DNA from: Curvularia clavata
Taxonomy: Eukaryota
DNA: 64,000 bases
Assembly: GCA_023920165.1 (NCBI GenBank)
Contig: CP089281.1
Coordinates: forward strand, 1,116,001 to 1,180,000
Direction: 5' to 3'
Positions 290 to 42,614 of the stretch are shown here, piece after piece (within the stretch, counting starts at the first letter, position 1; every line of letters starts with the position of its first letter). The notes under the pieces are model-generated. The model was not told the DNA's origin and made no database searches. It worked only from the letters and a program-made list of their open reading frames with translations. Both the position numbers and the translations under genes were made by a program.

Positions 290-1899
290 TCAATAAACAG
301 TCAAAGAGCTAACAGCCCCATTCTTGAGCACTTCAAACACCATGCCTGGAAAGCCAAATAGCTCCACGTTACCCACGTCTGTGGCACCACCCTCCATGAC
401 ACTACCGGCATTAGCAAACTTGCTCTTTTTCCCCGAGCTGTCTTCCCATCCCCCAAGTAGTTCGCAGCTGCTGCCTGGACTGTCTCCCCAGCCTCGATTT
501 AGCGCCATACCACGCTGCTGTAATCGCTCTTGCTCCTCGTTCTCGTAGTATGGTTTGAAGACCTCTTTCAGACGCCCGGAGATATCGCCGAAGCCCATTT
601 CGGAATTAAGCGGCTCGCGGTACATGGCTGAGGGGACGTGTTCAAGCGTCCATCTACTTCTCCGGTGTCTGTTGAACTGATATGAGCCCGGGACGTTACC
701 GTGGAATATTATCTTGGTTGCAGTAAGGTGGTTCAGGGGCTGTGCACTGAGCTCCCCTGCTTCCTGCAACTCAGCCTCTCGCCTTTCGGCAGTCGGCGAA
801 GGAGGAGAAATCTGTGTAGCCTGGGAGATGAGAATGTCGAATCCATGGTGGTAGTAGTTGTAGAAATGCTCTGCGGCAGCAATCTCCCGCTCCTGAGCCT
901 CCAAAGCTGCTTCGTCATCGTCTTCCCATGCATCCTCATCGTCGCTCCTGATGGCTGAGCCAGGATCTGAGTCTTCATCAGGTGTGAGACCGCCAGGGGA
1001 AAGATCTGATGCATCACTTGTTCTCCGGTCCTTATGGATAGACAGGCGGTGATCGTTCTTGCGATATATCGAGTCGGGGGCTCCCAACTCCATGATGAGA
1101 TCTTGGGGCGTTGTCTCACTGAGGATAATCCAGAATGGAGGGCTAGAACGCCTGACGAGCTCGATCCTGCCTTCACCATGTACTCTGACCGTTTCAATCT
1201 CATCTGGCCCACTTTCTTTCGCTTTGGCTAACATCAACGACCTTGGGTTCGCAGGGGGAGCGGTGAATAGAGTGGCCCGAGCCTTTTGCCATGATTCTCC
1301 GCTGAAGACGGCCATGGAAGTTGCGGGGCCAGTAGCAGACGATGACAGGAGCGAGATAAAGTCCTTCTTAGGGGAATATGCAGAGTTTTGAACAGGAAAG
1401 TTGAATGCTATGCCTGGGTAGGATAGGTTGTATGTGCCCATTGCATTTGGATCCTCCGACTTTGGCGGCACGTACTCTCCGCCATAAGTCGGCCCCAGCA
1501 GCTTGTCGTAAACATGCCTGAACCTCGGACCCGCTGGGCCTGCTGAGAAGCCCCCATCTGCAGGCTTGTACACTTCGATGTCCTTGTACACCAGCCGGGC
1601 TTTGGCAAAATCCAGCACTTCGATAAGGCGTAGCCGCTGGTCAGGGCCGTCAAACTGTAAGCGGAGGCCGTTGTCGGGAAGGACTACTTGTATTGGGGTT
1701 GAGATGGGATGAAAGTCGTCGTGGTAGAGGTGGAAGCGCGGGAAAGTCTTGACTTCGGCTTTGATGGTCGTCAGTACTTCGTGTAGTGAGCACCCAAGGG
1801 CTGTGTTTCAGTCAGCATGGTAACGCGCAAGGGCTACGTCGACCAACTCATGAAGCCTATGCTGCGCCCTGGCTGCAGCTGCATGTTTCCATCTTCCAT
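290..1899 (-). CDS. UPF0183 family protein (C16orf70/PHAF1-like); exons 1899-1848, 1800-290
   Basis: The 442-aa ORF extends upstream in frame (LGCSLHEVL...LPDNGLRLQFDGPDQRLRLIEVLDF). A 47-nt GT..TGCTGAC..CAG intron (1847-1801) joins it to ATG 1899. Motifs FGPTY-like LGPTYGGEY, LSYPGIAFNF, HFYNYYHHGFDIL and KIIFHGNVPGSYQFNRHRRSRW match this family. Confidence 0.85.
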
Positions 1900-2510
1900 G
1901 GTGGGCCTTGTATATGGATCTCAGCGAAAAAGTGTATGGAGAGAGTGTAACACGCTTGTTAGTCGATATGCAGCTACCTAGCTCGCGGATAGTAGGGATA
2001 AGCTCGTGCTCAGTTCACGAGGACATGTGACACACGCATACAACACAAGATCAACCCGACACGCAACACGGGGCGATGAACGGCCTAGGCGCTATAATAG
2101 GAGAGTGTATCCAGAGCTGCGGTCGTTGATTCCAAGTCTACACGCTGTCGGAGATACTGATGGAGGTGAACGAGGGGTGGTGGGGCTTCAGGGCATGCCG
2201 CTAGCACGTCTAGTCCATGGATTCAGAAGGGCGTAGATGGCAGCAGAGCGGTGTTAGGCAAGGCGGCTTCTATGGAAATAATACCAGCATCTATCTAGTC
2301 ATGATAGACATAAAGATGTGCAAGTCGAGTTGTATTGACGTAGTGCAAGGGGTTCGTGAAGGTACCTGGCGCGTGGTCTGAGCTTCCGCGCTGCCGGGAT
2401 GCTGCAGCATCTGTTTACCGATTGTTTACTTTCAGCCGGCGCTCCACAACACCAGACGTTCAGCATACTAACTACCAGCACAACACGCCCGCCACACCCA
2501 CAGCGGCACC

Positions 2511-5500
2511 ATGTCTGGCCTCCCAAGGCCCGGAGCGCCGGTCAAGCGCACCACCACATCAATGCGCCCTCCAACAACGCGACCACCCCATCTGGCGCGT
2601 GGTCGTTCAGCAACACCAGCCATGGACGGACGTGCTTCGAGAGCAGAATCGGTAGCTTCGACTGTGCGGACGCTACGTCCGTCGCCCATGAAGCGCAAAG
2701 AGCGGGAGTTTGAGGCGGATGGGGAAGAGACCAACATCAACGTTGTCGTCCGATGCAGAGGGCGAAATGACCGAGAAGTGCGCGAAAACAGCGGCGTCGT
2801 GGTGTCGACCAACGGAATCAAGGGTTCGACTGTAGACCTGTCCATGGGCTCGAGTGCGCTCAGCAACAAGACATATCAGTTCGACAAGGTGTTCTCCCCA
2901 GCAGCCGACCAGACCATGATCTTTGATGAAGTTGTTGCGCCAATTTTGAACGAGGTAACTTAGCACGATCTCGTCCACGACCAAAAAAAAAATAACTGAC
3001 GAATACAATAGGTTGTTGACGGCTTCAACTGCACGATCTTTGCCTATGGCCAGACCGGCACCGGCAAGACCTACACAATGACGGGTGACATTGCCAATGT
3101 CCTTCCACTCCCAGATGCTGCTGGTATAATACCGCGTGTGCTACACGCCCTCTTTGCACGCCTCGAAACCGACGAACTCGACAACTCTGTCAAGTGCTCC
3201 TTTATCGAACTGTACAACGAAGAGCTGCGCGACCTCCTATCTCCGGACGATGCGACGAAGCTCAAAATCTACGATGACAACAGCAAAAAAGGCTCTACCA
3301 CAACCATGGTGCAGGGTATGGAGGAGTGCCACCTAAAGACTGCATCCGAGGGCATCAAGCTACTGGCCAATGGCAGCCACAAGCGACAAGTCGCAGCGAC
3401 AAAATGCAACGACCTGAGTTCGCGAAGTCACACTGTCTTTACCATCACCGTCTACATCAAGCGAACGTCAGAAGATGGCCAGGAATATCTAAGCGCCGGA
3501 AAGCTCAATTTGGTGGATCTTGCGGGCAGTGAAAACATTCAGCGCAGTGGAGCTGAGAACAAGCGAGCTGCAGAGGCCGGTCTGATCAACAAGAGTCTGC
3601 TAACATTAGGTCGCGTTATCAACGCGCTTGTCGAACGCAGTCCACATATTCCGTACCGAGAATCAAAGCTGACACGGTTGTTGCAAGACTCGCTAGGCGG
3701 TCGGACGAAGACATGCATTATTGCAACCCTGTCACCGGCAAAGAGCAACCTGGAGGAAACCATCTCTACCCTGGACTACGCTTTCCGCGCCAAGAACATT
3801 CGGAATAAGCCCCAGGTCAACCAACCGATTAATAAGAAAGTCCTGCTCAAAGAATACACCACCGAGATTGAGAAGCTCAAGAGCGAACTGATTGCAACAA
3901 GGCAACGAAACGGCGTCTACCTTACACAAGAGAACTATGATGAGATCACGACGATAAGCGAGTCGAGGCGGATTCTAAGTGAAGAGCAGCGTGAACGACT
4001 CGAAACGATGGAGGTCAATCTGCGTAACAAGGTTGAAGACCTGTTCAAACTGACCACAAAGTTCCAAACACTCAAGAAGGACAACGAACAGACACAGCTG
4101 GAGTTGGATGGCACAAAGGGCATCTTAGAAAAGACGGAAATCGTTCTGAACCACACTCGCCAAAATCTGGAAGAGGAGGCGGAACTACGCAAGGCACACC
4201 AGAAGACAGAGGAGGAGCTCGCAGAAGTAGGACGAAGCATGATGTCAACTTTGAGCAAGACAACAACAGCAATTGATGGCTTGAGGTCAAAAATCCGCAG
4301 GAAATCCGAGCTTCAATCACAAAACCGACGGAACTGGAATTCTTCGCAAACACAGGTGGTAGACACTACTCGTCTGGTTGAGGACCGGATAGAAGAGTTT
4401 CAACATCAGCAAGAGCAGCTGATGGATGCCATCTCCGAGCGAATGCAAGCGTTTGTCCGGGACGAACTCGAGAAGCTGGGCGCTTCACAGGCCTTTTTGC
4501 AAGAGAAGATGGAGGCGTATCAGACATCCGAGACCGAGGTCAACAGTCAAACTGCGCAGGCGCGTGATCACATGAACGAGGTTCTTGAGGAGATCAAGAC
4601 GTTGCGTGAAGAAGTGAAGACAAAGATTGGTGCAGGACTCGATGAACTTTCTGCTGCAGCCGAGACCATTTCAGCAAACATAATCACGGAACTGGATGCC
4701 TTCCACACCCAGGTCCACTCGTCATATGCCAGTCTAGGCCGCGACTTCAAGACGACGTTCGACGATTTGGTCAAGGATCTGAACGACCAGCAGGCAGAGA
4801 ACGAGAAACTCCACCAGCAGGTCGTAGAGGCTAACACAGCTTTGATCGAGGCCAACAAAGCGTCTGAGGGCCAACTTGCAAAACTTGTGGACGAGGAAAA
4901 GCAGAGGGTCGCCGAAGACCGACAAGCGTTGTTGACACAAATTACTGCGCTTATGAATGCAAATGCGGAGGCGCAGGAGAAGAGACTACAAGAAAGGCTT
5001 TCGGCTGTGCGTGAAGAGATGGCCGCTGCTAACACTGCTTTCGAGGCCAAACAGGGAGCTTACACCGAAGGCGTCAACACATGGTCAGACAAATCAAGAG
5101 ATATTCTTGCAGGTGTATCAAAGTCGAGAGAGGCTGTCAAGACTAAGATCAAGTCGGATTTTGCTACCGCAACCGAGCACTCCACTTCGATCAAGGATAC
5201 AACCACGTCTGTCCATGAAAGCACCGTTAAGACTGTCGAAGCCCAGATGGCACATCTGGATACCCAATTGCAGTCTTTGGACGATATCGTTTCGCGTATC
5301 CGTGAACAGAACAATGCCCACCACGCTGCGCATACCGCATCGCTCGCCGCCCTATCCTCAACAGTCGGGGCCTCGTACTCTAGCATAGGAGATCATTTGT
5401 CGTCTTCCTTTGATCGCGTCCAGTCCCTCGAGTCGGAGATGTCGGTGCACACTGCTGGTCTCAAGGAGACTTTGCCATCTTTGGCGGCTGAATCAGATAT

Positions 5501-6131
5501 CCGCGCGCCGCTGCACGACCTCCGCGAGACTGTCAGCAACCAGAGCCTGATCGAGTACAACCCCACTGGCGAGACACCTCAACGCGTATCTTACAGCATC
5601 CCTTCGACACTTCCCCGTACCGAAGCACACGACACTATCATCTCCCGCCTTCGCAACCGCCCTACGTCATCCGACAGCACAACTCGAAGTCCATCCAAGC
5701 AACCGATTTTCAACGACGCAACAAACTCTCTCGCCTCACCAACCAGCTTACTTTCCCCCACTGCCAACAAGTCTGAAACGATGTTCCCTTCGATCAGTGC
5801 GCATGCCCACACCATTTCAATCCCTACAGGAGGAGGTAACCCCTCTTTTCTGCGGGAGTTGGATGTTAACGTGGTAGCGCAGGAAGCGCATACGCAGCCT
5901 CTTCCCCATCTCGCATCCCCATCTTCTTGCGAGTCACTGGCCAACGGGCCTCCAAGCAAGAAGATGCGTACAAGTAACGAAGAGACGAGTAAGCTGCCGA
6001 TGAAGAAGAACAGGAAGACAGTTGGTATTGCTGGCGAGAAGACAGACAGAGAGAATATTGCGAATTTCGGGAGTAGCGTTGGGCCCGGATTGGCGGCAGG
6101 GAGGAAGCTGAGGAGTCATGGGGGTACCTAA
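2511..6131 (+). CDS. bimC: Kinesin-5 (BimC/Eg5 family) mitotic motor; exons 2511-2954, 3012-6131
   Basis: NINVVVRCRGRN start of the motor domain; P-loop YGQTGTGKT after intron 2955-3011; SSRSH, LVDLAGSE and HIPYRESKLTRLL motifs; long coiled coil; BimC-box PTGETPQR near 5562-5585. Confidence 0.96.
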
Positions 6132-21803: not shown

Positions 21804-24800
21804 TTAGGCCGCCTCCTGAGTCGCCGTCTTGGCTTCACTGGCTGGCTGTGCCTCCTCTTGACGCTTCTCAGCGCTCTTCTCCTTTTGCTGGTCCTCGACA
21901 GCCTCGACCGTGGGCGGGGAATCGCTAGCTTCAGCCGCATCCCCCTTTTCCTTGGTCTCGGGGTTTCGGCCTTCGACATCTGGGTGAGGAGGTGCAACAC
22001 CGTGCTCCTCGGCGTCGTCGTGCGACTCGACCAATGCATCGTAAACCTCGTTGCCCTCGTCATCTACCAGGCGCGTTCGCGTCTCGTACCGTGTCTTGAA
22101 GCTGACTTTTCCCTTGAGTGCCTCAACCTCGGCGTCATCAAGCACCCGGCCCTTCTCGTCGCGGTACTCGATACGCTCTTCCTTGCGAACAACTGGCAGA
22201 TCCTTGGGCGGGTCCTGGGGTGGCGCAGAAACAATCTCCTCGGGCACGTTATCCTGCTTGACCGCCTCAGGCTGTTCCTGTGGCTGCTCCTTTGGCTGTT
22301 CCTTGGGTTGTTCAACCGGAACATTGGGCACAACAGCTGCAGGTGGCGCTGATGATGGTACAGCGGCTGACGCTAAAGGTTCGCTCTGGCTATTGTATGC
22401 TTCATACTACAACGTGTTAGACAAAGCCCACTACGCCATATCAAAACCACTTACCGAGTTGAGAAAGTTGTTGCACTCCCAGTCCCATGTATTGAAGAGC
22501 TTGACGCTGTTGCAGGCATCCTTGGTCCATGCGTTGCCATATGCAAGCGGAGCGAAAAGCGTAAAGACCATAATGGTAACAGCCAAGAAACCGACGGCAA
22601 TGGCCTGTCCGATGGCTGGGTATTGTCGGAGTCCAAATACACTGAACCGGTAGCTCACAAAGTCAAACATCTGGCAAAGCGCAAGAATGGCAAAGTACAG
22701 AGCGGGAAGGTAGTGGTGTAGGAACAGCTGGCGGGCCATCAGGTAGAAGGGGAAGTAGTGGAACGCCCATCCCAGAATGCTCATACCAACTTCGTAGTCG
22801 AAACGCTTGAACACGACGTTGTTGTAGTCGCGGTAGCCGCGCTGCCATCGGAGGATAGCAATACCCTTGACCGCTACGTAGAGAGCAATGAGCGCTGTAG
22901 AACTCCACCAGATGACAGGGTTTCCCAGAAGGTAGATTTGACGATGATGTTTGCCCCAGAAGTTGATACCCCGGCGGAGAATAGGCCACGATGGAGGACG
23001 AGAGTCCCAGGCGTGTGATTCAGTCAGACCGGCGTTGGTCTTCCACATGACTTTTTGCAGCTCCCAGAACTTGCCGAAGAAGCCAGGGTTGCGGTAGTTG
23101 ACCTTTTCTACCTCACCGTCCACCATGAGTGGGTGGACGTTGCCCTCAATGTACCAGATGCTATTGGGCAGGGTACCTTGCTTAGCACATGTAACTTCCT
23201 GCTGCTCAAAGCCCCAATCAGGGAGCTTGACCTTGTGAGAGAAGAGCGCACAACCAGTCATGACGTGGATCAGTCGGAACTTGGACTGAATGGTACGAAG
23301 GCGCTTCTTAGCCTCAGCTCCATCCGACTTGCTCGGGACAATCTCAACACGGAAAAGGTCATTCGCGTCGCCGTCAAAGCCTTGGTAACCATACGCTGAT
23401 ACCTCATTCTGCCAGTCGGCTTCGGTGACCGGCGGCCGAACATCGTGAGAGTGGAGGCGGCGGTCGGTAGTGATGTGGTAGAGGCGGATGACAGCACCGT
23501 TCTCAATGTGAAAGGGACCAATGCCATCCCAGGCCTTGGGGCTAGTCAAGTTGGGACCAGTGTAATCTTCCGGCATGATTGGCAGCGTTTGGTTCTCCAT
23601 GATCCAAATGTTATTCTCATCCTTATGGGGGTAGAGGGTAATCTGCTGTTGCTTGCTTCCGGTTGGGTACATGTGGCTGTGGGAATGAAGGTATCCGCCT
23701 TGGGTGTTCCAGTGACGAATGGAAACGCGGCTCCCATACGCGACATCTGCTGGTACATCTTGCATACCCTTGGAGTTCAACGTTGCCTGAAATTCAGACG
23801 ACATGAAACCATCGCCCTCACCAGGATTGACAAGGCAGAGGAAGTGAATTCCGAACATGGCCATGTAGAAAGAAACAGGGATGACGACCAAGCAGAACAG
23901 ACGGGCGAAGAAGTGCTTGAACCACAGCCTTGGCGTCACGTTCTTGGTATCTCCAAGCAGAACCCAAAGTTGAACAAGAGTCAGACTGCCAACCCAAGCG
24001 ATGGTGAACAGACCGACCCATTTGACACTGACGGTTGCACCAAGTCCAACACCAGTAGTAGCCAGCCAGAACCACCAGGACGGCTTGAAGGCCTTAGAGG
24101 GACCCTGTTCGTGTTGGTTCATGAAGCAAGTCCATGCGAGCGCGGTGAGGGCAGTGAAGATAATGAGGGGTGAGTCGAGCAGGATAAGGCGGGATTGAGT
24201 GACGAGAGCGTTGTCTTATCAAAGTCAGTATAAAGTGCAGCATCTCCTAGAACTGAGTTCTTACCAAAAATGACAAGACCCGCGCCCAACGCTGCCGTGG
24301 TAGTGCGACATCCAGCAGCCTTCAGGGTCAAGAACATGGTCGGAATGGTCAGGACACCGCAGATTGCGGGCAACAAGCGCATAGTGACATAGGGGACCTT
24401 GGGCTCCAGATAATCCTTGCCAATGTCCTTGAAGTCAAAGTTTCCGTCAAATCCACCTAACCATCCTGCCAGTGTGATAAGGAGCTTCGCGAGCGGCGGG
24501 TGAACGTCCATGAAAAACCTGCCCTTGATGTATTTCGAGGCAAATCCACCGAAGCTGCAATTGCTGGTCAGTGCCTGCCCGTGAGACCATACATGTAGAC
24601 GGAAATTACTTACTGGACTTCATCGAAGACAACACTGGTCGGCTGCTGAATCCTGAAGAGTCGTACAGCAGTTGCAAGAGCAGTCAACGCTGCCAGCAGG
24701 GACCAGTCGGAGCTTGGGAGGTTGAAGATGTCATGGTCTTGCACACCGTCCGAGGCGTAACTCTGAACTTTTTGTTGTGATTGCTGCTGTTTCCGACCGT

Positions 24801-24891
24801 TCCGCGAGCGTGATCGAGACTTTGATCTACTGGAGCGACGCGAGGAAGGCTTCTCGCCTAGGTAGGCATTGGATGCCGAGAGGCTCGCCAT
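21804..24891 (-). CDS. pmt1: Dolichyl-phosphate-mannose:protein O-mannosyltransferase (GT39), PMT1 subfamily; exons 24891-24614, 24554-24265, 24214-22455, 22406-21804
   Basis: SVVFDEVHFGGFASKY, FMDVHPPLAKL, MIR domains (GGYLHSH, RRLHSHD), RQLFLHHYLPALYF; long hydrophilic C-terminal tail typical of filamentous-fungal PMT1-type enzymes. Three introns; the second ends in AAG. Confidence 0.92.
22268..22315 (-). repeat. Imperfect 12-nt coding tandem repeat (EQPK EQPK EQPQ EQPE) in the Pmt1 tail
   Basis: Seen directly in the sequence and translation. Confidence 0.75.
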
Positions 24892-25690
24892 GGCGGCGGA
24901 CAAGAGAGACGTTGCGTGGTCCGATCAGCTAACGTGAGACGTGGAGCTGACGGTTTGGAGGAACCTGGGAGACCTTCAACTGTAGCGCAGGCTATGGGCA
25001 CCCGGGCCTCTTGATGGGTAAAAAAAGAAGAATTAAAGAAAGTGCGAAGGAGATCCCATCAAGGTGAAGGGAAGATGGTGGGGGCCGCAATTGTAGTTGC
25101 GATGATTCGAGCCAGGGGGAAGAGGGTCCCGCGAGGAGTAGCGCTGCGTACCAATCGACCCTTGTTGCAAGCTGTTCGTTACTACACAGCCTTGCCAAAC
25201 TGGGAAGCGGAGTGCTGAATATAGATCACGGTCCCTATCTGGCTTGCGTACACCATGCCAGACGCATCTGTCAGAACAGGCTGTTTTGGAACCAGATCTT
25301 CAGCTTCGCATTTGACAGACACTTTGACAGCCGCCTACGAGCCGAGTCGCGTCCAGTGTTTGGCCGAATGCTTGACCTTGCCACTTTCTGTGGCTAACCA
25401 AACGCGTCGTTACATAAGGCTCGGCCCGGAACAACTCGAAGATCCGGCTACGAGCCTCGTCGTGGAACTTTGCGACGCTGCCGCCTCAACTGCACCGCTG
25501 AATACTCAACCACCCCACAGTATCCACACGCGTCACACGCAAGCCAGTGGTGCGCAAGTGACTCGCGACCTGCCTTTTGTTGTTGGCGCCCGCCTATCAC
25601 GCGTCCTGTGATTGCCCTCATACCATCTTCGCGGACTTATCAAGGGACAAACATTCCTCGCAGCCGAGTCACATACCATTACATACCGCC

Positions 25691-27306
25691 ATGGCCAATT
25701 CCAACGGTGATGCCGCTCCGGCCGGCATCGTCGAGCTCGACGTGAAGCCGCCGCCCGATATGGTCGTTCCCCCACCCGGTGTGCGCGAGGCCGTAGCGAA
25801 GACGGCCGACTTCATTTCTCGCCGAGGCGAAAGTCAGCTTCTGGCAATGAAGCAGCGTCTACTTGCCGACCCCTCAGCCAAAACCAATTTTGCCTTCGTG
25901 CTGGAAGACGATCCATACAATCCCTATTTCTTGTGGTACCTGCAACAGCTGAGGGAGGGCCATGGGCGCTCCTCCGACAAGAACTCCAAACAAGCTGTCG
26001 ACAACAAGCCCAAAGGACCCCCCGAGCCACCCAAGTTTCGATTCTCGGCTCGCATGCCTAACATCAATGCCAAGGATTTGGAAGTACTAAAGCTGACTGC
26101 TCTATACACGGCGCGTGTGGGTGAGAACTGGCTGAAGGATTTGCGCAACCGTGAGTCGGGCAACTTCCAGTTTGACTTTCTCCGAGTCAATCATAGCTAC
26201 TTCGGGTTCTTCCGATCGCTTGTCGAACAATACAAGATCCTTCTCGAGGAGGAGGCGACAGTTGAGGCCCGTATTCAAGAGCTTCAGCATAACATCAAGA
26301 ACCGATTCCATGTGTTGGACCACGCAAAGGGCCGTGCCGAGTATGTCAAGTATGTCAACGCGCAAAAAGAGAAGGAAGAGAAGAAGATAGAAGCCGAGAG
26401 GCAGGAGTATGCTACTGTTGACTGGCATGACTTCAGCGTCATTGCAACGGTCGTCTTTGATGAGACTGATGATGCCGCGGAGCTACCTCCGCCTGCTCAG
26501 CTGAACGATCTACAGTCACAGTCTCTCGAGCAAAAAGCGGCCGTTTCGCTATCTACACGTCGTTTGGAGGAAGCCATGCCTGACGATATCACCTACTACA
26601 ACGTCACTCAGCAGCAGGTCCCACCACCCCCAGTGCAACCAAACTATGCCACAGTCGCACCGCCAGTGCATTCGCCATATGGCGCGTCGCCCTACGCACC
26701 TCCTCCGATGCCCGACTATCGAACGCCTGCGCAGATATCACGCGAAGAGGAGCAGGCACGGTTGGCAAAGGAACGCCAAACAGAGAGCGAGCAGCGCGCA
26801 CGCGCACAGGCTGCTGCCAGAGGAGCGCCTGGTCGCATTGTCACAGACTACGTCCCCCGCGCTGCCGCAAAGAAGGCAAACGTACCGATGGCTATGTGCC
26901 CTAACTGCAAGCAGCAAATCCCCTCCAATGAGATGGATGAGCACATTCGAAGTGAGCATTTACCCGAATCTCCAACGACGATACATGCTAACATTTTGTT
27001 CTAGTTGAATTGCTTGATCCCCGCTGGAAGGAACAACGTGACAAAGCCGAAGCCCGATACTCCACCTCCATCAATACCGCCGACGTTGCAAACAACCTCA
27101 AGCGTTTTGCCAGTCAACGTGAGGACATATACGATGGCGTTGCTGGCCAGTCCATATCCGCAGAAGAAGAAGCTCGAAGGAAGAAAGCTGCGCTATCGTA
27201 TGACGGACAGCCGGATCCTGCAAAGGACGCTGCCCGTCTATCACAGATGCAGAGCATGAACGTTCAGGAGCAGCTTCGCAGGATCCAAGAGAAGCATCGC
27301 CAGTAG
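25691..27306 (+). CDS. prp21: U2 snRNP splicing factor SF3a120/Prp21; exons 25691-26951, 27005-27306
   Basis: Two SURP-like domains (VAKTADFI...DPYNPYF; VLKLTALY...NFQFDFLRVNHSYF), EYATVDWHDF, CPNCKQQIP, and HIRIELLDPRWKEQR after splicing intron 26952-27004. Confidence 0.93.
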
Positions 27307-31159: not shown

Positions 31160-31863
31160 AATGGCAAAAACATGCAGTTGGTTCTTCTATCTTTGCCTTT
31201 TTCGACCTGAGTCGCAAACACTAGGTTTGATTGCAATTGAGAAAAGATACTTCGAGTCTTGACGGGGGTTATGAGTTGCTGCATTCGTTGCATAGTAAAC
31301 ACGATCTCAGCAATGAGTTGCGAACATTGGTAAATGGCTCCAAAGATGCTGGCTGATTGACTGAAGAAACCACTTATTCTTCGAGTCTTCTCATCTGTAT
31401 TGCTTGTTTTTCTTTTTGGATATTCATGTTCTCTCAGGCGTTTTTGATCTTGTTTAGCTGAAGTTTTGCTCGCTGTTGTATTAGTACGAACGAATGATAC
31501 AGAAACCTCATCATATCCATTGCTCTGGCATTGCTTCTTCACTTCAAACAGTGCGCATCTACCACTATCTTTATCGCATTTATCGAGTCTGCGTGATGGT
31601 ACCTTCCGAATGGAGATTCGCATGTGTTGTCAAGAAGGTGTACACTACCCCTCATCACCAGAGCAGTACGTCATATTCAGAGTTGCCCATCGGGAAACCC
31701 CTCGCAACCTTACTTCTTTCAACTAGCGCGACAGTGATACGCATGTCGAGCCGAAACCACCTGCCTTTTGGTCTGGGTATATAAAAGCCGTATGTACTCA
31801 ACAAATTAGCAGATTGCGCAGGGACGACTTTTTCTAGCAAGATTCTGCTTTGTTACAGCCATT

Positions 31864-33296
31864 ATGCCTTCCATAAGCGAAATTGTAAAAGCCAACCATC
31901 CAGACTTGAGTTCATACGAAGAGCTGTGTTAGCGTAGACACCCTTATCGCGTCTAAGTAATTGCTGACAATCTATCAGATAAATGGTTTCACACACATCC
32001 TGAATTATCTTTCCAAGAAAAGAATACCGCGGAAGCCATTGTCAAGCATCTCAAGACCTTTAATGTATTCGAAATTCACTCTTCCATTGGCGGCCACGGG
32101 ATCGCCGCTACTTTCTCCAACGGCCCAGGAAAGACCATCCTTTTACGCGCTGATATCGATGCTCTGCCCGTTGAAGAAAAGACAGGACTGCAATACGCCA
32201 GTAAGGCGCGCATGAAGGATGTTGATGGTGTCGAGAAGCCAGTCATGCATGCCTGTGGGCATGACATGCATATCACTGCACTGCTCGCGGCCGCAGACTG
32301 CCTGGTCAAATGCAAGGATCAATGGAGTGGCGAATTGATATTGGTATTCCAGCCCGCTGAAGAGAGAGCAGGTGGTGCTCAGAACATGGTGTAAGTGTAG
32401 AAAAGACCTACAACATTTCGTGAAGATACTGATGAAACGTAGAGACGATGGCCTTTATAAAAAGGTCAGAGAACCCGATGTCGTTGTTGGAGCGCATGTC
32501 ATGCCCGAAAGAGCCGGAGTGATTGGTACAAAGCGTGGTCTTATTGCTAGCTCAGCAGACAGGTTCCAGTGCGTGAGACGTCTTTCCACTTATTTTTCGA
32601 TGCGACTGGGAGCTGACCGCACGTAGACTCCGCATCCCGGGTCGCCAAGCCCATGCTTCCATGCCCCATCGAGGTCTCGACCCAATTGTTCAAGCAGCTT
32701 CTACAATCATGCGTCTCCAATCGATTGTATCGCGCGAGGTTGACCCCCTAGACTTCGCCGTCGTAACCGTCTCCGCCATCAACGCAGGCGATGCTGAGAA
32801 CATTATCCCCTCAGAAGCCAACCTGAAAATCGACGTGCGTGCAGGCCTACCAAAGACACGTCAACGTGTCCTGGCAAGCGTAAAGCGCATCATAGCTGCA
32901 GAAGCTGAGGCTTCCAACAATCCCGAGCAGCCCACTCTAACACCAACAACGCAATTCCCACTGCTATTCAACGACGATGGCGTCACAGAAGCGCTGGAGA
33001 AATCCTTCTCTGAGCACTTTGCGCCAGGGAAGACGGGGTACCAAAGTGACATCGCCAGACTCCAAGGAAGTGAAGACTTTGGTATCCTGGCCACGGCAAT
33101 TGGAAAGCCAAGTTGCTTCTTTTTGTACGGAGGCACAGATCCGAAGCTGTGGGATAAGGCAGAAGAAGACGATAGGTTGAGTGAAGACATCCCAGGCAAC
33201 CACAGCCCCTTCTTTGCACCCGTGATTCAGCCCACGCTTACTTGCGGTATGGAGGGGTATGTTGTTGCGGCGTTGACTTTCTTGGGGAAGAAATAG
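31864..33296 (+). CDS. M20D amidohydrolase (hippurate hydrolase/aminoacylase-like); exons 31864-31927, 31979-32390, 32443-32568, 32627-33296
   Basis: Spliced product contains HTHPELSFQE, LLRADIDALP, MHACGHDMH, FQPAEE, GRQAHASMPH, GSEDF and PGNHSPFF; three GT-AG introns keep the frame. Confidence 0.9.
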
Positions 33297-34084
33297 GACA
33301 TCGAGGGAGTCCGGGCCTAAATCAGGATGAGGGAGTTCTCCTCCCGCGAACAAGGAGGAGTCTAGGCCTTAATTACGAGACAGTTCTCCTGCTGCAAACT
33401 AAATCGAGGAAGTGTGATGTGAAGTATATGGATTAAGGCTGGGAGGGGTATTGAGAGTGGGTGGGGGAGTATATGCAGAGATAAGTTGGCACTCATCAGA
33501 TTAGGACGTATTCTGAGGTGTTAAAGTTTTTCAATTGAATTGTATAAAGTTGGAAGTGATTTTCATTTAAGTCTGTTATTAGAGATATTCTGTTTAGCCG
33601 AGCGAACACGTGCCTGTATTGAAAGAATGTTTGTACCTTTGCGATGTGTGCGGCACTGATTAAGTCTAGAATGAGTATAGTCTCTGGTTGGTTACTCTTT
33701 GATTAACGGTTAGAGTCGTTGCGACGCCAATGTACATGCATGACTGAGTTTGATTAACTAAGATCTACTGGTGTTTGCCTTGAGTGGCCAATAGCTGAAA
33801 AGTGCATTTGATCAGAGCTAGTTGGTGTAGATTCTGTAATTGATTGTGTTGATTGATCTAGAGATGTCCACTTATCTAGCTCGTAACTCTGAACGCTGAA
33901 AAAGTGCGTTTTATTAGAGTAAATGAATGCAGCTCTATGTCAACTTAGTTCAGTGCGCTAAGAAAAAATTGATTTCATCACAAGCAAAAGTAATTCAGCA
34001 TGTGCCAGATTAACAGTATGATTCCATTGCTCCCTTTCGCGCCGTGCTACTCAGTGATGCTGACGAAATAAAAAGACATGTACA

Positions 34085-36309
34085 TCATGCACCCCTTCTT
34101 ACGTTTGTGCTCATGAGTGTAATCTTCTTTCCCTTCTTCTTCTTGCCACCGCCCTTCTTGGGCATTTCCTCCCCCTCAGCGAGTGACATGGCCTGAGCCT
34201 GGGCAATCATGTCTTCCTCGCCGAGCAGATCCTTCTCCCAGCCTTGCAGCCAACCATCATCACCGTCATGATGATCATGCGGAGCCAAGACAGGAGATGC
34301 TCCAGGAACAACTGCAGTACCCCAGACAGTCCGGGGTGCTGATGGGCTTGTAGAAGGAGAGGCTAACGAAGCAAATCCATCGCCACTCCGTGGAGGCCAG
34401 GGAGGTGATGTTGAAGTGTGATCGCCATCCATAGCAGGTTGTGCATCAGTTGCACTTCCCGATGCTAATGGTTGGAAGTCATCTGCTGAGAAGCGCTCCG
34501 TGATACTTGGCCGTCTCCTGCGTGCCGATGCAAACTCAGCGTACTCAGCCTTCTCCGCACGTTGCCGCGCTTTCTCCTCCTTTGTCTCCTTCTCTGTATG
34601 CTTCTTGCGTCGCCTTTCGATTTCTGGTCTGAATCGTTCCAGAATCTCGGGAGCAACCGTATCGGTCCAATCGCACTCAAGGAAACCCACCTCGCAACCG
34701 TAGGGTAGATGAGCCAAATATTTTGTGCGTTTCCGCAATTCGTCATCTACTACATGGCCAGTGGAGACATGCTCTACTCGAGGTAGGATAGTGGATGGGA
34801 AAGAAGCGAAATTCCCAAAGGCAGCTTTGAGAATGCGGATGTCCAATGGCGAAAGATAATAGTGTAGTAATGCTTGATAAAAGTAGTATTCAGAAGGCGT
34901 TTTGTGATGTTCGTGGTGTTGTCGGTTGCGTAGCTCAGCGAGAGTCAATGATATACCATGGCTAGTCGCGGACGAATGCGACGAGATGGACATGGTCCGA
35001 TCTTTGGCTGTTGGAGCTTCGGATTCCGGGACGGGTTGGGGTGTGAAATCTTGGCCCGACTTGGACGCGTTTTGGACGTGGTACATTTCAGGTGCCGCCC
35101 CTTCATCATCAAACACGATCGGGGCTCTCTTCATCTTGGGTTCTGTAGGCTTAGCAGGCTCCTCGGGAGGGTTCCCAATGCCTTTGAATTTCTCTTTGAG
35201 TTCTCGGATGTTCCGTATCGCTCTCCTTGTCCATTCCATGCTGTCCTCGGCAAACATGACCTCATCCTCCTTGCCCTGCTGCTCGAGCTTGACGATCTCT
35301 TGATCGAGCTGCTCAAGCATATAGTCCTCACCACCTCGCATTACGCGAGCATAGTCGGTGACCTCGGCCGCGTGGTACCAAGGTATGTCTTGGTCCTTGG
35401 GTAGAGCATCGGCACCGTCACGGGGCATAGCCAAGGTGCTTCCAGCTGACCTGACCACCAAACGCAGAACAACATCGGCGCCCTCTCTCGGAGCCTCGCC
35501 CTCTTGGCCGGTGTACCACCGGACGGGCCTGGTCTCCGAGGCATATATGGTGTCGAAGCACAGTGGGCACTTCTTAGATCGGGCCTTCTTCTCGGGCGCC
35601 TTGCTGTCGTCTTCAGAGTGCATGTAGCGAATGAGACAGGGAAGACAAAAGATGTGGCCACACTTGGCCATCCTCGGGGCTACCGGAGTCCCGAGGCAGA
35701 TGGGACAAGAGGCTTCCTGGGAAATCTCTGACACCAATATCTGCATGACATTATTCCAGTCCAAGTGGATATCGGCGTCGACACTCTGGGCGCGATAATC
35801 GCCGCGAGGGTCGACAATGAAGCGGTAGTTGGCGTGGACGTATCTTGGGGCAAGTTAGTTGAGCCACACTGAAGAGACGAGGGGAAGAGCACTTGCCTGG
35901 CCTTATCGACGGCATGGTAGCCTGATCCCAGACCCCATGTGGGGTTGCGCCGGTAGTTTCTCCCATGGCCGTGCGACTGGTGGTGGTTGGTTGGGCGTGG
36001 TGGGAGGCTGAAGTTCATCAAGTGGGTGATGGACGTCTGGCCCTTCCTGTTACTGAATGGGCGCATGGCGAGGGATTCGGCAATGGCATCCTCGTCTGTG
36101 TGTCGAAAGCGCTTGGAGCCCTTGTGCTGCTTCTTTTGCTGCTGGCTGTTGCGAGGCGTAGGGGCGGATCGCGCCGAGGGCCCGCTGCCCCGCGGCTGGG
36201 CAAAGAAGCTGCTGGTGCTGATGGATGGAGCCTGGTTCTGGGCGGGAGAAGCAGGGCCCGAGGGAACAGAAGCCTTGGACGAGGACGGGGCGGGCGGGTT
36301 GCTAGACAT
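34085..36309 (-). CDS. mag2: C3HC4 RING E3 ubiquitin ligase, Mag2/RNF10 family; exons 36309-35897, 35843-34085
   Basis: SITHLMNF, VDKARYVHANYRFIV, RING CPIC..CGHIFCLPC..CPLC, YYFYQ, LSPLDIRIL, LRKRTKYLAHLP and C-terminal KKKKGKKITLMST; the frame is restored by a 53-nt GCAAGT..ACTAAC..AAG intron. Confidence 0.88.
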
Positions 36310-37231
36310 GACTCCCAGCTAAGGGCTCACGGCAGCGCGATAGCGGCAACGACACGCCGACGGCGACGATGACGTTGACAAGCGACGAGGAAAATAAATG
36401 AAGGTCGGCAGGCGTCGATGCAGCGAGACGCGACGGGACGGGACGAAACGGAGTATATGGGGCGCTGTAAAGGGGTGGTTTGGGGCGAGTTGGGGGTCCC
36501 CAGAAGGGTACTTGGTCGGGGACAAGAGACAGAAGGTGGAGTGGCGGATCGAGACGGCGGCCTTGATGACGAACTGGACGGTCACGTTACTTGCCCCCAT
36601 ACATACCATCACTGCATACAAGTACTACATTTCTCAGCGACTGCAATTGCGTTTCTTCTGGCACTGCATCGGGTCGCTGAACAAGACCGGGTCTTTTTGA
36701 ATTGCATCGCCTGCCATTGGCTTTGCACGATATCTGCTGCTTTGTCGCACATTTCTTTCAACTCGTCTGGCCGGCGTCTGGCTGAGGGCGCTCTAACGTC
36801 TCCGCACAGACTCGACGGCCCTTCCGCTGTTCGTTTCGAGCTTCTTCCATTGCCCGCCAAGACCAACCCCAACACCACCGACTGCTCTCCTCGACCACCA
36901 CCGCCATCCCCGCTCACCATCCGCCCTCACCCTCCGCACGTGTCTCCCTCTTGTCGCGGGCAGCCTCTGCTGCGCTCATGTCGTCGTGATACCATGACCC
37001 CGCGATTGTCGACTCGCCCATCCGCACCGCATCCCTCGCCCACGCCCGTCGCGCGACCCTGCTCCGCATCCGAATAAATATAATCCAACCCACCATCCGC
37101 GCGCCTCACCCGCACCCGCACCCGCGACCGCCAACCATCGCCCCATCGCCTCTCCGCCCCGTTGCCTCACAAGTTGGCTGCTTGCTTCCTGGCCAGCGCC
37201 GACTGTCGAGGCAACACCGCGCCCAGCCCTC
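36310..37231. promoter_or_regulatory. Divergent (candidate bidirectional) promoter region between mag2 and ubp3
   Basis: 922 bp between the two outward-facing ATGs; strand composition flips from G-rich to C-rich on + around 36600-36800, as expected for two pyrimidine-rich leaders. Confidence 0.6.
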
Positions 37232-39937
37232 ATGATGCCCGGCCCTTATATGCCTGGGAGGAGGCAGGCCGAGCAGCAGTACTACCATCACCACATTCCG
37301 CCCCAGACACACTCGCCAGTTCACCACAACCCTTACGCCGCGCCCTATCACCATCTGCAGCAGTATGGGCCCCCTCACGGATACCCCCAGCACATGCAGC
37401 CCATGCAGCAATGGTATCCCTACCAGCAACCGCCGCCCCCGCCCCAGTATGCCATGCCTCCGCGTCAGTTCCAGCCTCAGCCTCATGCCTCGCCTGTCGT
37501 AGTCTCCTCGCATCTGCACATGGCCCCTCCAGTCAACCGCCAGATGGGCCAAACACCGCCTATTGTTCATTCACGCACGCCACCAGCCCCTCGCATGCCT
37601 ACCCCTCAACAGGCGCCTTCGACTCCTTCAGTCCAGCCCCAGCCGTATATGCCTACTTCGACACCACAGCCAACCGCCACTGTCGACAGCCCCGTATCGG
37701 TAGCTGAGTCAAAGCCTACGCCACCAGCCCCGACCACCCCGCAGTCCATCACTTTCAAGCCCTTCTATCCGCCTCTGCCCTGGCTATCTGTGCCCGAGTC
37801 GGACTTCCCAGCTCGTGCTTCGCGTGGAAGAAGACGGAGAAGGGTCCCCGTGTCTACCGAAGAGCAGGCTTTGGCCCTGCCTTCGCGCGAACAGGCTCTC
37901 GAGCAGGATACTCTGAATGAGACTGCTGAAGACACAGAGGGCGACAGGACTCCGACCGAAGGACCAGAAGAGTCTCAGGCATCTACCGTTGCTGGCCCGT
38001 CCGATGCTGAGGTCGATACCCCCTCTACCTCGCACCCACCTTCAGAAGTCGATTTGGCCCAGTCTTCGACTCCATCTACTGCGACGCCATCAGGTTCACA
38101 ACAAGCTACCCAGGCCACGGCTATAGCCAAGAAGCATGGTCGCAACCCCACCATACCCGCCGTGCCCCGCGTCCCAATCAAACCTGCAAAGGCGTCAAGC
38201 GCAGCTTCTACTACACAGCAATCTCTCAAGTCACCAGCTGCAGCCCAGCCAGAGTTGTCGCAGATTGACGATGCCACCACCAAGACGGATGAAGCCGCTC
38301 CAGATGCTGAAGAAAAGCCTAAGCCTGCCGCACCAAAATCATGGGCAGAGTTGTTGAGGGCAAAGAATGCTACCAAAGCAGCCCAACAGGTTGCACCACC
38401 AACCAATACGGCGCCGGCTACCAATGGCCCCGTTGTACAAAAGAGTAATACCCTTGCAGACGTCCTGGCATCCTTCTCCGTCGACTCGGAGAAGAAGGTC
38501 TCCTTTATTGAACCACGTGGTCTTGTCAATTCGGGTAATCTGTGTTATATGAATTCTGTATGTCCTGCCCCTTTCGTCATCACGCGTACCTCACTAAACC
38601 GCCACTAGATTCTTCAAGTACTTCTTTTCTGCGTCCCATTTTACGATTTCCTTGACCAGGTCGCCAAACGTGCTGTTCACAGTTTCAAGTCCGAGACGCC
38701 TCTTATAGACGCCATGATCATGTTCTTGCGCGATTTCAAGCTCATTGATTCTGCCGCTACTGTTGAACAGCTTCGTCTACGACTGAAGAGTAACGATATC
38801 GAGCAGTACGGCGACCCTCTGGCCCCAGAGTACGTGTACGACGTCATCAAACGGCTCCCTCGCTTCGATAATATGAAGAGAGGCCAGCAAGAAGACGCCG
38901 AGGAATTCTTGGGTTTCCTGCTCGCTGGCCTACACGATGAGTGTGTTCAAATAATCAAGAGCGGAAGGCAAAATCAGCCTGCGGGTACTGCCACTTCCGA
39001 TAACAGCGAGCAATCAGGCGCTGTTGACAGTGGCTGGGAGGAGGTTGGTCACAAACAGAAGACAGCCGTCACTCAAAACTCTGGAGCTATTGATGTCGAA
39101 AGCCCCATCACCAAAATCTTTGGTGGCAAGCTGCGCTCTGAGTACAAGAGGCCGGGCGAGAAGGCTTCGGTCACACTTGAGCCGTACCAACCGCTCCAGC
39201 TTGACATCGGCGAGCCAAACATCAACAACATTTCGGATGCCCTCAAGAATCTGACACGCCTAGAAACGCTTGATGGCGCCGCTCGTGGTGCCAAGGCATC
39301 GACGAAACAAGTGCATATCGAGTCACTCCCACCCGTCTTGATACTCCACCTAAAGCGTTTTCACTATGATGAGAAGGGACCCCAGAAGATTTGGAAGAAG
39401 ATTGGGTACCCACTCGAGCTGGAACTACCTAAAGAGGTGTTCCCACCACACAAGCGGGGAAGCTACCAGGTCCAAGGCGGCTTCCCTCGGTACAGGCTCA
39501 CTGGTGTTGTTTACCACCACGGCAAGAATGCCAGTGGTGGTCACTACACTGTCGACCTGCGACGCCAGGAAGGAAAAGAATGGATCCGTATGGATGACAC
39601 CATCATCCGCCGCATCCGCGCTGAAGAAGTCGCCGAGGGTGGTGCTGAAGAAGACCCCAAGGTCTTGGCCGCCGCCCTTGAGCAACACAAATCCGATGCT
39701 GGGAAGAACAAGAACTTCTTTGCCCAGATCGATATTGACGAGGAGGAGCCTGACAAGGGTGGCTGGAATCAGGTTAATGGCTCAGACAAACAGAAGGACG
39801 GTAGCAAGAAGTGGAGTGGTATCGTCAACGGCGCAGCAACCCCTAATTCCACCGGCAAGCGGACACCACTTCCAAAGGAAAATGTGCGCGACAACAAGGT
39901 GGCATACATCCTGTTCTACCAGCGCATTGAACCCTGA
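37232..39937 (+). CDS. ubp3: Ubiquitin-specific protease Ubp3/USP10 family (peptidase C19); exons 37232-38557, 38609-39937
   Basis: Long P/Q-rich N-terminus, PKSWAELL motif, Cys box EPRGLVNSGNLCYMNSILQ (across intron 38558-38608), GQQEDAEEFL, SPITKIFGG, LPPVLILHLKRF, His box YHHGKNASGGHY, AYILFYQR. Confidence 0.9.
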
Positions 39938-40284
39938 GATGAATGAGGAATGCATTGCGGTGGACGAGTTCAACACAATATGATTTCAAGAGCCATCTTG
40001 TAATGACATGGGAGAAAACTAAAATAATAGAACAAGGAAGAAGAGGGGGGGAGCCAGACGTGAATGATTATGACGCAGTCATGAACAGTCGCGACTACCA
40101 AGCATCGCTTCGGTGCGGTGCACAAAAGAGTTGGCCAAAAGTATTTCGTGTCGGTTGATACCCTTGTGGGTGTTGGGATAGCACGAATGATGATGATAAA
40201 ACTTCACCTTGTTTGGCATATTATTTTGCATGTGATGCTCTTGTCTTGTCGCACTGTACTCAAATGGCCAAATCTCCTGGCGTG

Positions 40285-42082
40285 TTACACCTCAACCTGC
40301 GCATACAAGATCCTATCGCCCTCGATATCCGCCCTCATCTCCGGGAAATTCTCATAAAACCTCTCGTCCATCATCCAATTCTTCAGATTGCTCCCATACA
40401 TTTCAAACAAGGGACTGGGCAGATAGCTGCCACTGACGTCGTCGTGGAAAAAAGTGTCTTCGAATCGAAAGGGCCAGTCGAAGCGGATACAGTTGCGGTA
40501 GTAGAAAGACAGTACATTGGATCGGGATAGCAGCGAGTGTTGCGATAGGAACCGGGAGCGCAGACTGGGCCAGGTGAATAGGTCGATGATAATGGGGTGC
40601 TTGGTGGAGGCTTGGGATGAGCTGGAGAGGGAGAGGGATGATGTTAGTCGTTACTAAGAGTTGATATGAAGGAACGAGAATACCTTGGTCGTTGCCATAC
40701 TGGTATGTTGTCTAAATCCTGTTTTGTCGCATTGAGATAGTACTGTAATTTTTTTGGAACAGAAAACATTAGCGCATGGACGGGGGAGCCTGCGGACACT
40801 GAGGTATGCACATACCTTGAGCAGCTTCAGACTTTTATATCCGATGGCTAGGCGCTCCGTCTTTGGCAGCTGGTGAAATGCCAGTTCGTCGATCTGTTTG
40901 ACTAACTCGAGGGTGGGGTAGTATTGCCATTCGAAGGCTGGTATGGTATCCCAACCGTTTTTTATACCTAGGTACAATACCCCAGCTTCTGGGGCTCTGG
41001 ATTGTGATTGCCGACCGGCAAGGATCCTGTTGTTGCCATGCGAACGATAGGTAAAGATTCGGTTTAATATTTGGTTGACTTTCGCCCAGACAGGGCATAG
41101 AGGAGCGCTTGGAGTGGGCTGAGGAACCTTGGCAGGGTTTCCAATGTATTGGATGGTAGGAGACGGAGTATATAAGCCTGGACCAAAGATCTGCGGAGTA
41201 AAATTAGTACGTACAATATAAATGTATAGGTGGTTGGAAAAGTGGAAAAGCACATCTTGTAGCATTGCCTTGAACGTTGTTTCTCTTTGAATCTTCACAG
41301 AGGGATCTTCCTCCTCTTGCTCTTGTACACTTTCTGTATGTAGTTGTAGTTCCAGACTGGGATCTGCATGTTGGTTTGTATCTTGGGAACCTAGCACGTG
41401 TGTGTCTGTCATGAGGCTCATGCCGTCAAGGTCGATGGACCCCGTTAGTGTAGGTTGGTCGAAGAATATCGGCTGCGCGATGGATGTTGGTGGTTCTGTA
41501 AAAGCCGCTTGTTTGGCAAAAGTTGCCTGTTCTGTAGAAATTGGCTGGTTGGCATCAGCGACTGCAAATACTTTTGCATTATGGTTAACAAAAGGTGTAA
41601 GCAGCTCAGGTAAACTTGGGCCTGTTGTGTTATATGAGCGACCCAGCGAATGAATCCAGATATGAGGATTGCGAGGCATGCATACCAGTATTTGTCGCTG
41701 TTGATGAACTGTCCTCGTCTTTTTCACCTTCTTCGCCTCTTGCCGCCATGATATTCTGCGAAGCAATACCGCCTCCAACAAGACTTCTCACATTATCGAT
41801 AATCTGCCTTAACCGCTTATTCTCTGCTCGCAGGGCGTCAATCTCAGAGATTAAATTGGCTGTCGCGCTGTTGCCATCTTTTTCCCGTAGTATTTCTATT
41901 GTGCGCTCAAGTTCAGCAAGACGCGTCTTTGTCTTCTCTCGAAGGGACCGCTGAGCCTCACGGTCCATTGCACGTTTTCTTTCGCGGCGCTCCTGTTCAT
42001 CTAGGCATGAAACCGGGCGTTTCCGCTTCGGTGCGATGGGTGTGCGGGACGAAGCAGCATCACTGAGTTCGTGCTTTCCCAT
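40285..42082 (-). CDS. bZIP transcription factor with C-terminal DUF3425-like domain; introns 41685-41622, 41253-41191 (probable), 40815-40743, 40683-40622
   Basis: Basic region RERKRAMDREAQRSLREKTK plus leucine zipper; spliced C-terminus IPVWQRPS..HPIIIDLFTWPSLRSR..IRFDWPF..SPLFE..LKNW..FYENFPEM ends at TAA 40285. Confidence 0.85.
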
Positions 42083-42614
42083 GACGATACTGTTATGGCT
42101 CCAAAAGTATATTTGTGAGGTGTAATCACGTTTTCAAGCAAATCGGCGTTCAGATAATAGGAAATGGGTTGAATTAGAGTACGTTGTTGACATGATAGTC
42201 GGCCCTATTTATCGGCCGAGGAGCTTTGTCGCCCCTTGATAGCTTCTCGGCGAGCTCGTCTCGCGCCATTCGTCGATAGCCATGACGGGAGAGGAGATCC
42301 TGGGGTAAACTTATGCCCTTTTGGGACGGCTGGTGTGATAGGTCAAGGCTAGATTGCTGTGAATTGATTATTGCTCAGGGGTCGACCTTGAATTGCAAGT
42401 GTGAAAAGTGGACATCACTCGAAAGGAAAGTACTACTGAAGCGATACAGGCAGCATGCCCATTAGTTGCGTGCATCGCTGTACGGATTGCTTCCAGCACT
42501 CTGCTCTACGGACATGTCACTGTCTGGTTAGTAGAACGATACTGAGATGATGAAAAGACAGAAGACTGCGTTTCCAAATCCTGGCCATTTAGAATAGGTT
42601 GTCTACCTGATAGA

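Follow-up and report, generated by a model that had tools for sequence, protein, structure and literature searches.

What keeps two genes with opposing products side by side while the gene order around them is lost? This question is raised by a locus in a 64-kb stretch of Curvularia clavata DNA (hereafter the window), at positions 34085..39937 counted between the outer bases of both stop codons, where a gene for a RING-type ubiquitin ligase (E3) on the minus strand (34085-36309) lies head to head with a gene for a USP deubiquitinase (DUB) on the plus strand (37232-39937). For most of Pezizomycotina, we find the head-to-head layout to be ancestral; the pair outlasts local synteny by far, yet is dispensable. 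We propose, with a confidence that is evenly divided, that a compact divergent promoter region keeps the two genes together by coupling the dosage of antagonists whose targets are the same ribosomal marks.

The two start codons are separated by a spacer of 922 bp (36310..37231 in the open-frame listing), from which the genes diverge exactly as a preliminary description of this locus had claimed, on opposite strands, with 5' ends facing and starts less than 1 kb apart, as in a divergent pair. The RING protein is 723 amino acids long, the USP protein 884, and each gene carries a single intron. Transcript evidence was taken from contigs of four public runs, belonging to four studies, mapped to window positions 33500-40500: the RING splice joint (35843->35897, CT..GC on the plus strand and hence GC..AG on the minus strand) was present in all four runs and the USP splice joint (38557->38609, GT..AG) in three of them. 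The runs are listed as guessed RNA, and the presence of spliced forms implies that the contigs are derived from cDNA; with both joints seen, both genes are real, transcribed and spliced as modeled. These are two conserved protein-coding genes, both intact with their catalytic motifs kept, and a chance artifact is not at issue.

By sequence, the 723-amino-acid protein belongs to the Mag2/RNF10 family of RING E3 enzymes. Pfam places PF00097 (C3HC4, E 1e-7) and PF13923 at residues 46-95 of RING exon 2, and the best protein match, at 94% identity, is from Bipolaris. A HMMER search with RING exon 2 returned 1907 cluster representatives at E <= 1e-3, and matches to named members were strong (Schizosaccharomyces pombe P8B7.23 at E 1e-76, a Sugiyamaella protein named "Mag2p" at E 6.5e-62, and a protein of the chytrid Geranomyces named "RING finger protein 10" at E 5.1e-47), with further members in Glomeromycota, Mortierellomycota, Zoopagomycota and Basidiomycota; a Coniochaeta relative bears the name "RING-finger protein MAG2". 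These names come from look-ups of representatives together with a word-based search that started at a related locus. When 15 sequences including the window protein, P8B7.23, Mag2p and RNF10 were aligned, the eight RING metal ligands (seven Cys and one His) were invariant in all 15, and invariant columns ran over the full length (e.g., R159, F160, F505, Y506, Y559, and H562). Blocks outside the RING were present as well, with Y-V-x-A-N-Y-R-F before it and middle and C-terminal blocks, whose status as family-defining is our reading of the alignment and not a curated definition. A gene tree with named anchors recovered the class phylogeny, with branch supports that are weaker for having been computed by FastTree. 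The protein atlas clusters for the pair are named only "RING-type domain-containing protein" or "UCH", and a sequence search of the PDB with the RING protein returned generic RING domains and no RNF10 chain. A table in PMC2198940 pairs MAG2/YLR427W with human RNF10. The assignment to the Mag2/RNF10 family, made in the preliminary description, is thus upheld by Pfam, by the alignment and by the matches to named members.

The partner gene carries the catalytic domain PF00443 (UCH) in exon 2 (E 9.7e-37) with both Cys and His boxes, and its best protein match, at 96% identity, is again from Bipolaris, as expected of a Pleosporales fungus of that kinship. Close relatives are named at source "ubiquitin carboxyl-terminal hydrolase 10" and "putative ubiquitin carboxyl-terminal hydrolase 3". 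Ubp3/USP10 proteins typically have a USP domain at the C-terminal end, preceded by a long disordered half, and the window protein, with its N-terminal half rich in P, Q, S, and T and the catalytic domain in its C-terminal half, fits this layout. The first 442 amino acids matched no Pfam family and no solved PDB chain; the best PDB matches to the protein were USP8, USP15, and USP7 (E ~1e-16), and no USP10 or Ubp3 catalytic chain was found in that search. Of the earlier proposal that this is a Ubp3/USP10 homolog, the USP domain and the names of its relatives (hydrolase 10 and hydrolase 3) stand, and the orthology is one of annotation and not of phylogeny.

Going by the title of their 2017 paper, Jung et al. 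reportedly identified Ubp3 as a deubiquitinase for Rps3 mono-ubiquitination. That title, together with the literature on RNF10/Mag2 and USP10, bears out the uS3 writer and eraser roles from which the preliminary description had started. According to the relevant passages of these sources (PMC10878831 among them), RNF10/Mag2 mono-ubiquitylates uS3 (and uS5), and USP10 takes the marks off, protecting 40S subunits; one published section is headed [quoted passage not shown]. Mag2 marks uS3 in 18S non-functional rRNA decay, as the same passages of PMC10878831 describe.

To establish how deep the arrangement goes, we used 80 metagenome loci around RING relatives, reaching up to 10 kb per side and found with a diverse RING alignment; 33 of them had at least 5 kb upstream of RING, and the remaining 47 were too short to count as absences. 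The USP gene was detected by tblastn in 30 of the 80 loci and lay upstream of RING on the opposite strand in every one of the 30. Among assessable loci it was present in 23 of 33, while seven of the 47 short loci also showed it; L014 and L024 had partial USP matches at a contig edge. Locus classes were assigned by combining the RING tree with named USP hits, namely Lachnellula (Leotiomycetes), Dirinaria, Caloplaca, and Lecanora (Lecanoromycetes), and Lithohypha (Eurotiomycetes). On this basis the pair was found in Pleosporales, one other Dothideomycete (L060), Eurotiomycetes, Leotiomycetes, Lecanoromycetes, and one Pezizomycete locus (L037, whose RING is 62% identical to that of Kalaharituber, clade support 100), that is, it is retained in five of the six sampled classes. 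Spacers across loci measured ~0.7-1.5 kb. No intervening gene was seen where the gap was examined, nine gap open reading frames (ORFs) being without a Pfam family, and the minus-strand gap ORFs in L003, L005, L035, and L038 proved to be the N-termini of named USPs. Annotated genomes agree, with consecutive locus tags for the two genes in Coniothyrium glycines (000567/000568), Pleosporales sp. CAS-2024a (007184/007185), Ascochyta clinopodiicola (005667/005666), Paraphaeosphaeria minitans (009958/009959), and the onygenalean Myotisia sp. (FQN57_001197/001198, both on one 49,553-bp contig). In many more Pleosporales and in Saccharata, RING and USP are on contigs of equal size, which suggests that they likely share the same contig.

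Depth of this kind has to be read against the background of local synteny. As a control, ORFs of at least 90 amino acids from the 80 loci and from 22 kb of the window were compared all against all, with shadow frames removed, giving 169 ORF families that recur in at least two loci (RING, one family for each USP exon, and a piece of RING exon 1 among them). No fewer than 163 of the 169 were confined to one class. RING itself reached six classes, and the only families beyond it to reach more than two were USP (19-20 non-redundant lineage groups, five classes) and an ERG4/ERG24 sterol reductase (PF01222); a dienelactone hydrolase (DLH) reached two. Adjacency no deeper than background synteny had been named in advance as what would overturn the idea, and with the pair present in 23 of 33 loci and five classes, set against 163 of 169 families in a single class, the adjacency is plainly deeper.

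The sterol reductase gene is linked to the pair, on either side of it, in 24 of the 80 loci (e.g., L003, L005, L015, L027, L037, L043, L053, L056, and L059). Two configurations recur: ERG(-) USP(-) RING(+) in Leotiomycetes and the Pezizomycete locus, and USP(-) RING(+) ERG(+) in Eurotiomycetes, Lecanoromycetes, and some Dothideomycetes; in L035, ERG is on the USP side as well, ~5 kb from USP. The simplest single event joining both configurations is an inversion with breakpoints that flank, and do not split, the pair. No functional reason for the ERG4/ERG24 linkage was apparent to us. A 650-amino-acid RING homolog of Purpureocillium takamizusanense (P0522) is named at source "Delta(24(24(1)))-sterol reductase"; the name may derive from an ERG4 model next to it or fused with it, in keeping with the ERG linkage.

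In the lineage of the window, the pair is a synteny island, separated from every other usual neighbor yet intact. In other Pleosporales, the flanks (L006, L009, L012, L022, L044, and L051) hold a small ORF, a SPOUT methyltransferase (PF02598), and DLH, the small ORF and the methyltransferase gene following RING. Neither these three nor ERG4/24 had any match in the whole 64-kb window, where the flanks (31600-34084 and 39938-42100) hold an M20 peptidase gene and unknown ORFs. Conversely, eight other ORFs of the window (the M20 peptidase, the ORF at 29483, PRP21, PMT, the ORFs at 40654, 42947, and 46209, and DUF7730) served as tblastn queries against the 80 loci, some of which have 89-91% RING identity, and no ortholog was found. 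A single PMT-family match came up, in L037, and was set aside as a probable paralog at 38% identity.

The features of the locus are collected in Table 1. The GC donor of the RING intron appears to be particular to this locus, in that none of the 80 related loci has one at the phase-2 intron position; most intron-bearing loci have a GT donor there, and the junction is intronless in many Eurotiomycete, Sordariomycete, and Leotiomycete loci and in some Pleosporales loci.

Table 1. Features of the divergent RING/USP locus (positions are those of the window; UTR, untranslated region; uORF, upstream open reading frame; uAUG, upstream start codon)
Feature	Position	Strand	Remarks
RING 3' UTR to poly(A) site	34003..34084	-	one run; loose end of 21 T just before 34003, ~82 nt beyond stop codon
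RING exon 2 including stop	34085..35843	-	YVHANYRF motif, C3HC4 RING, conserved C-terminal domains
RING intron, 53 nt	35844..35896	-	GC-AG, donor GCAAGT (AG|GCAAGT), branch CTAAC; phase 2 in Arg codon
RING exon 1	35897..36309	-	first 138 codons, of low complexity; matched by tblastn in related loci
Minimum RING 5' UTR	36310..36473	-	one contig covers 36227-36473; contig strandless, so assignment to RING mRNA is putative
Conserved Pleosporales block near RING transcript start	36490..36539	.	inverted repeat GTCCCC/GGGGAC; 7-sequence alignment
GTCACGTT; reads CACGTGA (E-box-like) in 5 other Pleosporales spacers	36581..36588	.	core between leaders; putative binding site
Minimum USP 5' leader	36866..37231	+	2584-nt contig spanning 36866 to 39500, carries USP splice
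USP uORF 1 (ATG TCG TCG TGA)	36978..36989	+	uAUG invariant in 7/7 Pleosporales spacers
USP uORF 2 (27 codons + stop)	36994..37077	+	uAUG invariant in 7/7 Pleosporales spacers
USP leader hairpin	37161..37215	+	ends 16 nt 5' of start codon
USP exon 1	37232..38557	+	442 codons, P/Q/S/T-rich, ends in Cys box GNLCYMNS
USP intron, 51 nt	38558..38608	+	GT-AG; splits Cys box region
USP exon 2 including stop	38609..39937	+	remainder of PF00443 catalytic domain, His box GGHYTVD, C-terminal tail

Much of the spacer is transcribed, with leaders of at least 164 nt for RING and at least 366 nt for USP that leave at most ~390 bp between them. The bin 36542-36775 was without contig cover in all four runs, from which we draw no conclusion about a promoter there. 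Five conserved blocks emerged when seven Pleosporales spacers were aligned, one beside the RING ATG and the others corresponding to 36490-36539, the E-box-like element, the uAUGs, and the hairpin. The CACGTGA-like element may resemble a Cbf1-type site. A count of 7-mers over 22 spacers recovered no words other than those of the leader hairpin and uORF block in Pleosporales; CACGTG, tried as a promoter motif common to the classes, occurred in 12 of 22 gap regions at inconsistent distances to either gene and was rejected. The interval 37150-37240 folds at -37.1 kcal/mol (z -4.13, a value equaled by none of 200 shuffles), and the hairpin consensus from eight sequences has 22 pairs, three of them with compensatory change; a pattern search across the related loci confined the hairpin to Pleosporales and L060. 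Two invariant uAUGs and a stable hairpin in the USP leader suggest translational control of the deubiquitinase. The uORFs sit on the USP side, and inspection of the RING leader by eye as far as 36473 showed no upstream AUG. A table of PMC1964767 includes MAG2/YLR427W of Saccharomyces cerevisiae in its set of genes whose upstream ORF is conserved. Two contigs skip part of the RING leader, one each for 36364->36492 (X9) and 36387->36492 (X16), losing 127 or 104 nt; with non-canonical ends and short sides, these skips may reflect relatives whose leader differs in length, and not splicing.

Given that the leaders lie at most ~390 bp apart, co-regulation of the two genes from a putative single promoter is plausible. 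Under the reading that we prefer, one compact divergent promoter region would drive both genes, this sharing would couple the dosage of the writer and the eraser that set uS3/uS5 ubiquitylation and hence 40S fate, and selection would then act against breaks inside the spacer. Such coupling would be advantageous rather than essential, given that the pair has been lost in several lineages. A body of evidence weighs against this reading. Ten of the 33 assessable loci have no USP upstream: both assessable Sordariomycete loci (L076 and L080) lack the pair, USP is absent at the Tuber-like L031 and the Lecanoromycete L042, and it is also absent in the non-Pleosporales Dothideomycetes L028, L032/33, L053, L055, and L064. 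The USP-lacking loci contain no runs of N and have other genes upstream. L076 is 82-83% identical to Chaetomiaceae proteins, and in both Sordariomycete loci a gene for a large protein with AMPK1_CBM, a glycogen-binding module, lies upstream of RING on the same strand (L076 6272-8647, L080 2868-5078), which suggests a single old rearrangement that removed USP. Parsimony requires a minimum of four state changes, and if adjacency arose once, its origin predates the Pezizomycete split and at least four losses followed. The unrelated ERG4/ERG24 gene also counts against us, since with 15 lineage groups in five classes it is linked equally deep, and deep linkage alone is therefore no proof of a functional tie; L053 and L056 even keep RING and ERG while USP is gone. 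The Ubp3/USP10 type of the deubiquitinase, probable as it is, comes from source annotations and not from phylogeny, and the enzyme family has other ribosomal targets, eS7 (passages of PMC10878831) and uS10 (by abstracts) being substrates of Ubp3/USP10 too.

The yeasts complicate the picture further. A table of PMC3032702 gives S. pombe ubp3 as SPBP8B7.21, and supplement 4 of PMC2871058 shows the RING gene P8B7.23 between a co-directional endoplasmic reticulum-retention receptor gene and a convergent Atg8 gene. The two S. pombe genes are thus two gene numbers apart on one cosmid, with one gene between them. S. pombe names without the suffix "c" denote the same strand, and neither the ubp3 name nor the RING name carries it. 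With a gene in between and both genes on one strand by their names, no promoter is shared there, which also argues against retention by a shared promoter. Even so, we estimate odds of roughly 1 in 1000 that a given pair of genes, out of ~5000, would by chance lie no more than two positions apart. In S. cerevisiae, MAG2 (YLR427W) and UBP3 (YER151C) are unlinked, the chromosome letters of these systematic names placing them on different chromosomes, and this too speaks against the coupling that we propose.

The most serious alternative, somewhat unlikely in our judgment, is a purely structural constraint that implies no functional tie: with both promoters and their long leaders packed into a spacer of 0.7-1.5 kb, nearly any breakpoint between the genes would harm one of them, and the common ribosomal marks would be coincidental. 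The equally deep linkage of the unrelated ERG4/ERG24 gene (five of six classes), often only ~300-370 bp behind RING (L015, L053), speaks for this alternative, as does the pair's absence from 10 of 33 loci; among the many gene pairs read, moreover, some functionally related neighbors would be expected by chance. Published comparisons cut both ways, in that Table 1 of PMC2871058 lists ~50 deeply conserved divergent fungal pairs, many without obvious functional relation, whereas conserved divergent pairs as a group are described in the same source as enriched for functional relatedness. Against packing, it is improbable that the deeply kept neighbor of an RNF10 ortholog should by chance be the known DUB family for its marks, and the S. 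pombe linkage persists without a common spacer, where spacer packing explains nothing. Less likely still is neutral persistence, in which the patch rearranges slowly and the pair is an unselected remnant of ancestral gene order, as ERG4/24 and DLH would be. These two genes do recur near the pair as well (in five and two classes, respectively), and the adjacency has been lost repeatedly; however, the 163 of 169 flanking families found in one class mean that the patch as a whole is unstable, ERG4/24 and DLH switch side and orientation whereas all 30 loci with both genes show the pair head to head, and in the window all other usual neighbors are gone. We consider it very improbable that the USP is not the Ubp3/USP10 ortholog, or does not act on 40S proteins in these fungi, in which case the pair would be real and the writer/eraser reading wrong. 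Orthology based on source names, the distance of the best PDB relatives (USP8, USP15, and USP7), and an N-terminal half with neither family nor solved-chain match leave room for such a misassignment, but several independent annotations say hydrolase 10 or hydrolase 3, the domain layout agrees with that of Ubp3/USP10, and the S. pombe counterpart by linkage is ubp3.

Beyond dosage coupling by a divergent promoter, the locus invites a bolder proposal, which we regard as decidedly unlikely in its full form: the pair would be a selected 40S homeostat, in which the promoter fixes the ratio of writer to eraser and leader-controlled synthesis of the eraser closes a feedback loop. One divergent promoter would fix the ratio of the two transcripts, and the uAUGs and the -37 kcal/mol hairpin would tie deubiquitinase synthesis to 43S scanning and initiation; given that failed 43S scanning or initiation is what triggers RNF10-type marking, a feedback on ribosome turnover would close. 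If this were true, deep conservation would give separate, comparative support for Ubp3 as the enzyme dedicated to erasing the Mag2 mark in fungi.

Gene neighborhood is a standard basis for inferring function in bacteria and seldom works in eukaryotes. Here, an E3 and the deubiquitinase predicted to reverse it have kept their head-to-head position from a time before the filamentous ascomycete classes diverged, in surroundings that have been reshuffled nearly throughout. If selection holds the pair together, its conservation provides a comparative-genomic argument for Ubp3/USP10 as the physiological partner of Mag2/RNF10 in fungi and predicts dosage coupling of both antagonists, and the lineages in which the pair is split (Sordariomycetes, some Dothideomycetes, and budding yeast) become natural experiments to set against the lineages that keep it. 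If promoter packing alone is responsible, this is one more conserved divergent pair, of modest interest. The window contains two other divergent pairs that are real by Pfam, one of PHAF1/UPF0183 and kinesin-5 (290-6131) and one of a protein O-mannosyltransferase and PRP21 (22431-27004).

The linkage was believed to be undescribed, and our literature search agrees, having found no report of it and no paper tying these genes to gene order, synteny, or a bidirectional promoter. Within PMC2871058, which surveyed conserved gene pairs in 2010, the RING/USP pair is absent from Table 1, and a term search of supplement 4 gave no row joining P8B7.23 with UCH and no UPF0183, PRP21, or sterol reductase rows. 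How the pair relates to known systems can nevertheless be stated. Its products belong to the same two protein families as the 40S ubiquitin cycle of RNF10-USP10 in mammals and Mag2-Ubp3 in budding yeast; unlike the unlinked S. cerevisiae genes, those of the window share a 922-bp spacer, as in most Pezizomycotina classes, the activities here being predicted from homology. The S. pombe locus of ubp3 and SPBP8B7.23 likewise has the two families close by, but in contrast to the window they are neither adjacent nor head to head. In its layout, the pair is like RAD16/RAD7, H2A/H2B, SNZ1/SNO1, and RPABC2/TFIIIA as they appear in PMC2871058, which are head to head with a short spacer, kept across fungal subphyla, and functionally related, in keeping with the tendency toward functional relatedness reported there for conserved divergent gene pairs in fungi. 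The products of those pairs, as presented in that source, belong to one complex as its subunits or act at steps of a single pathway, whereas RING and USP are antagonists, an E3 and a DUB. Deeply conserved divergent pairs of related genes are thus known; what would be new is a member whose products oppose each other.

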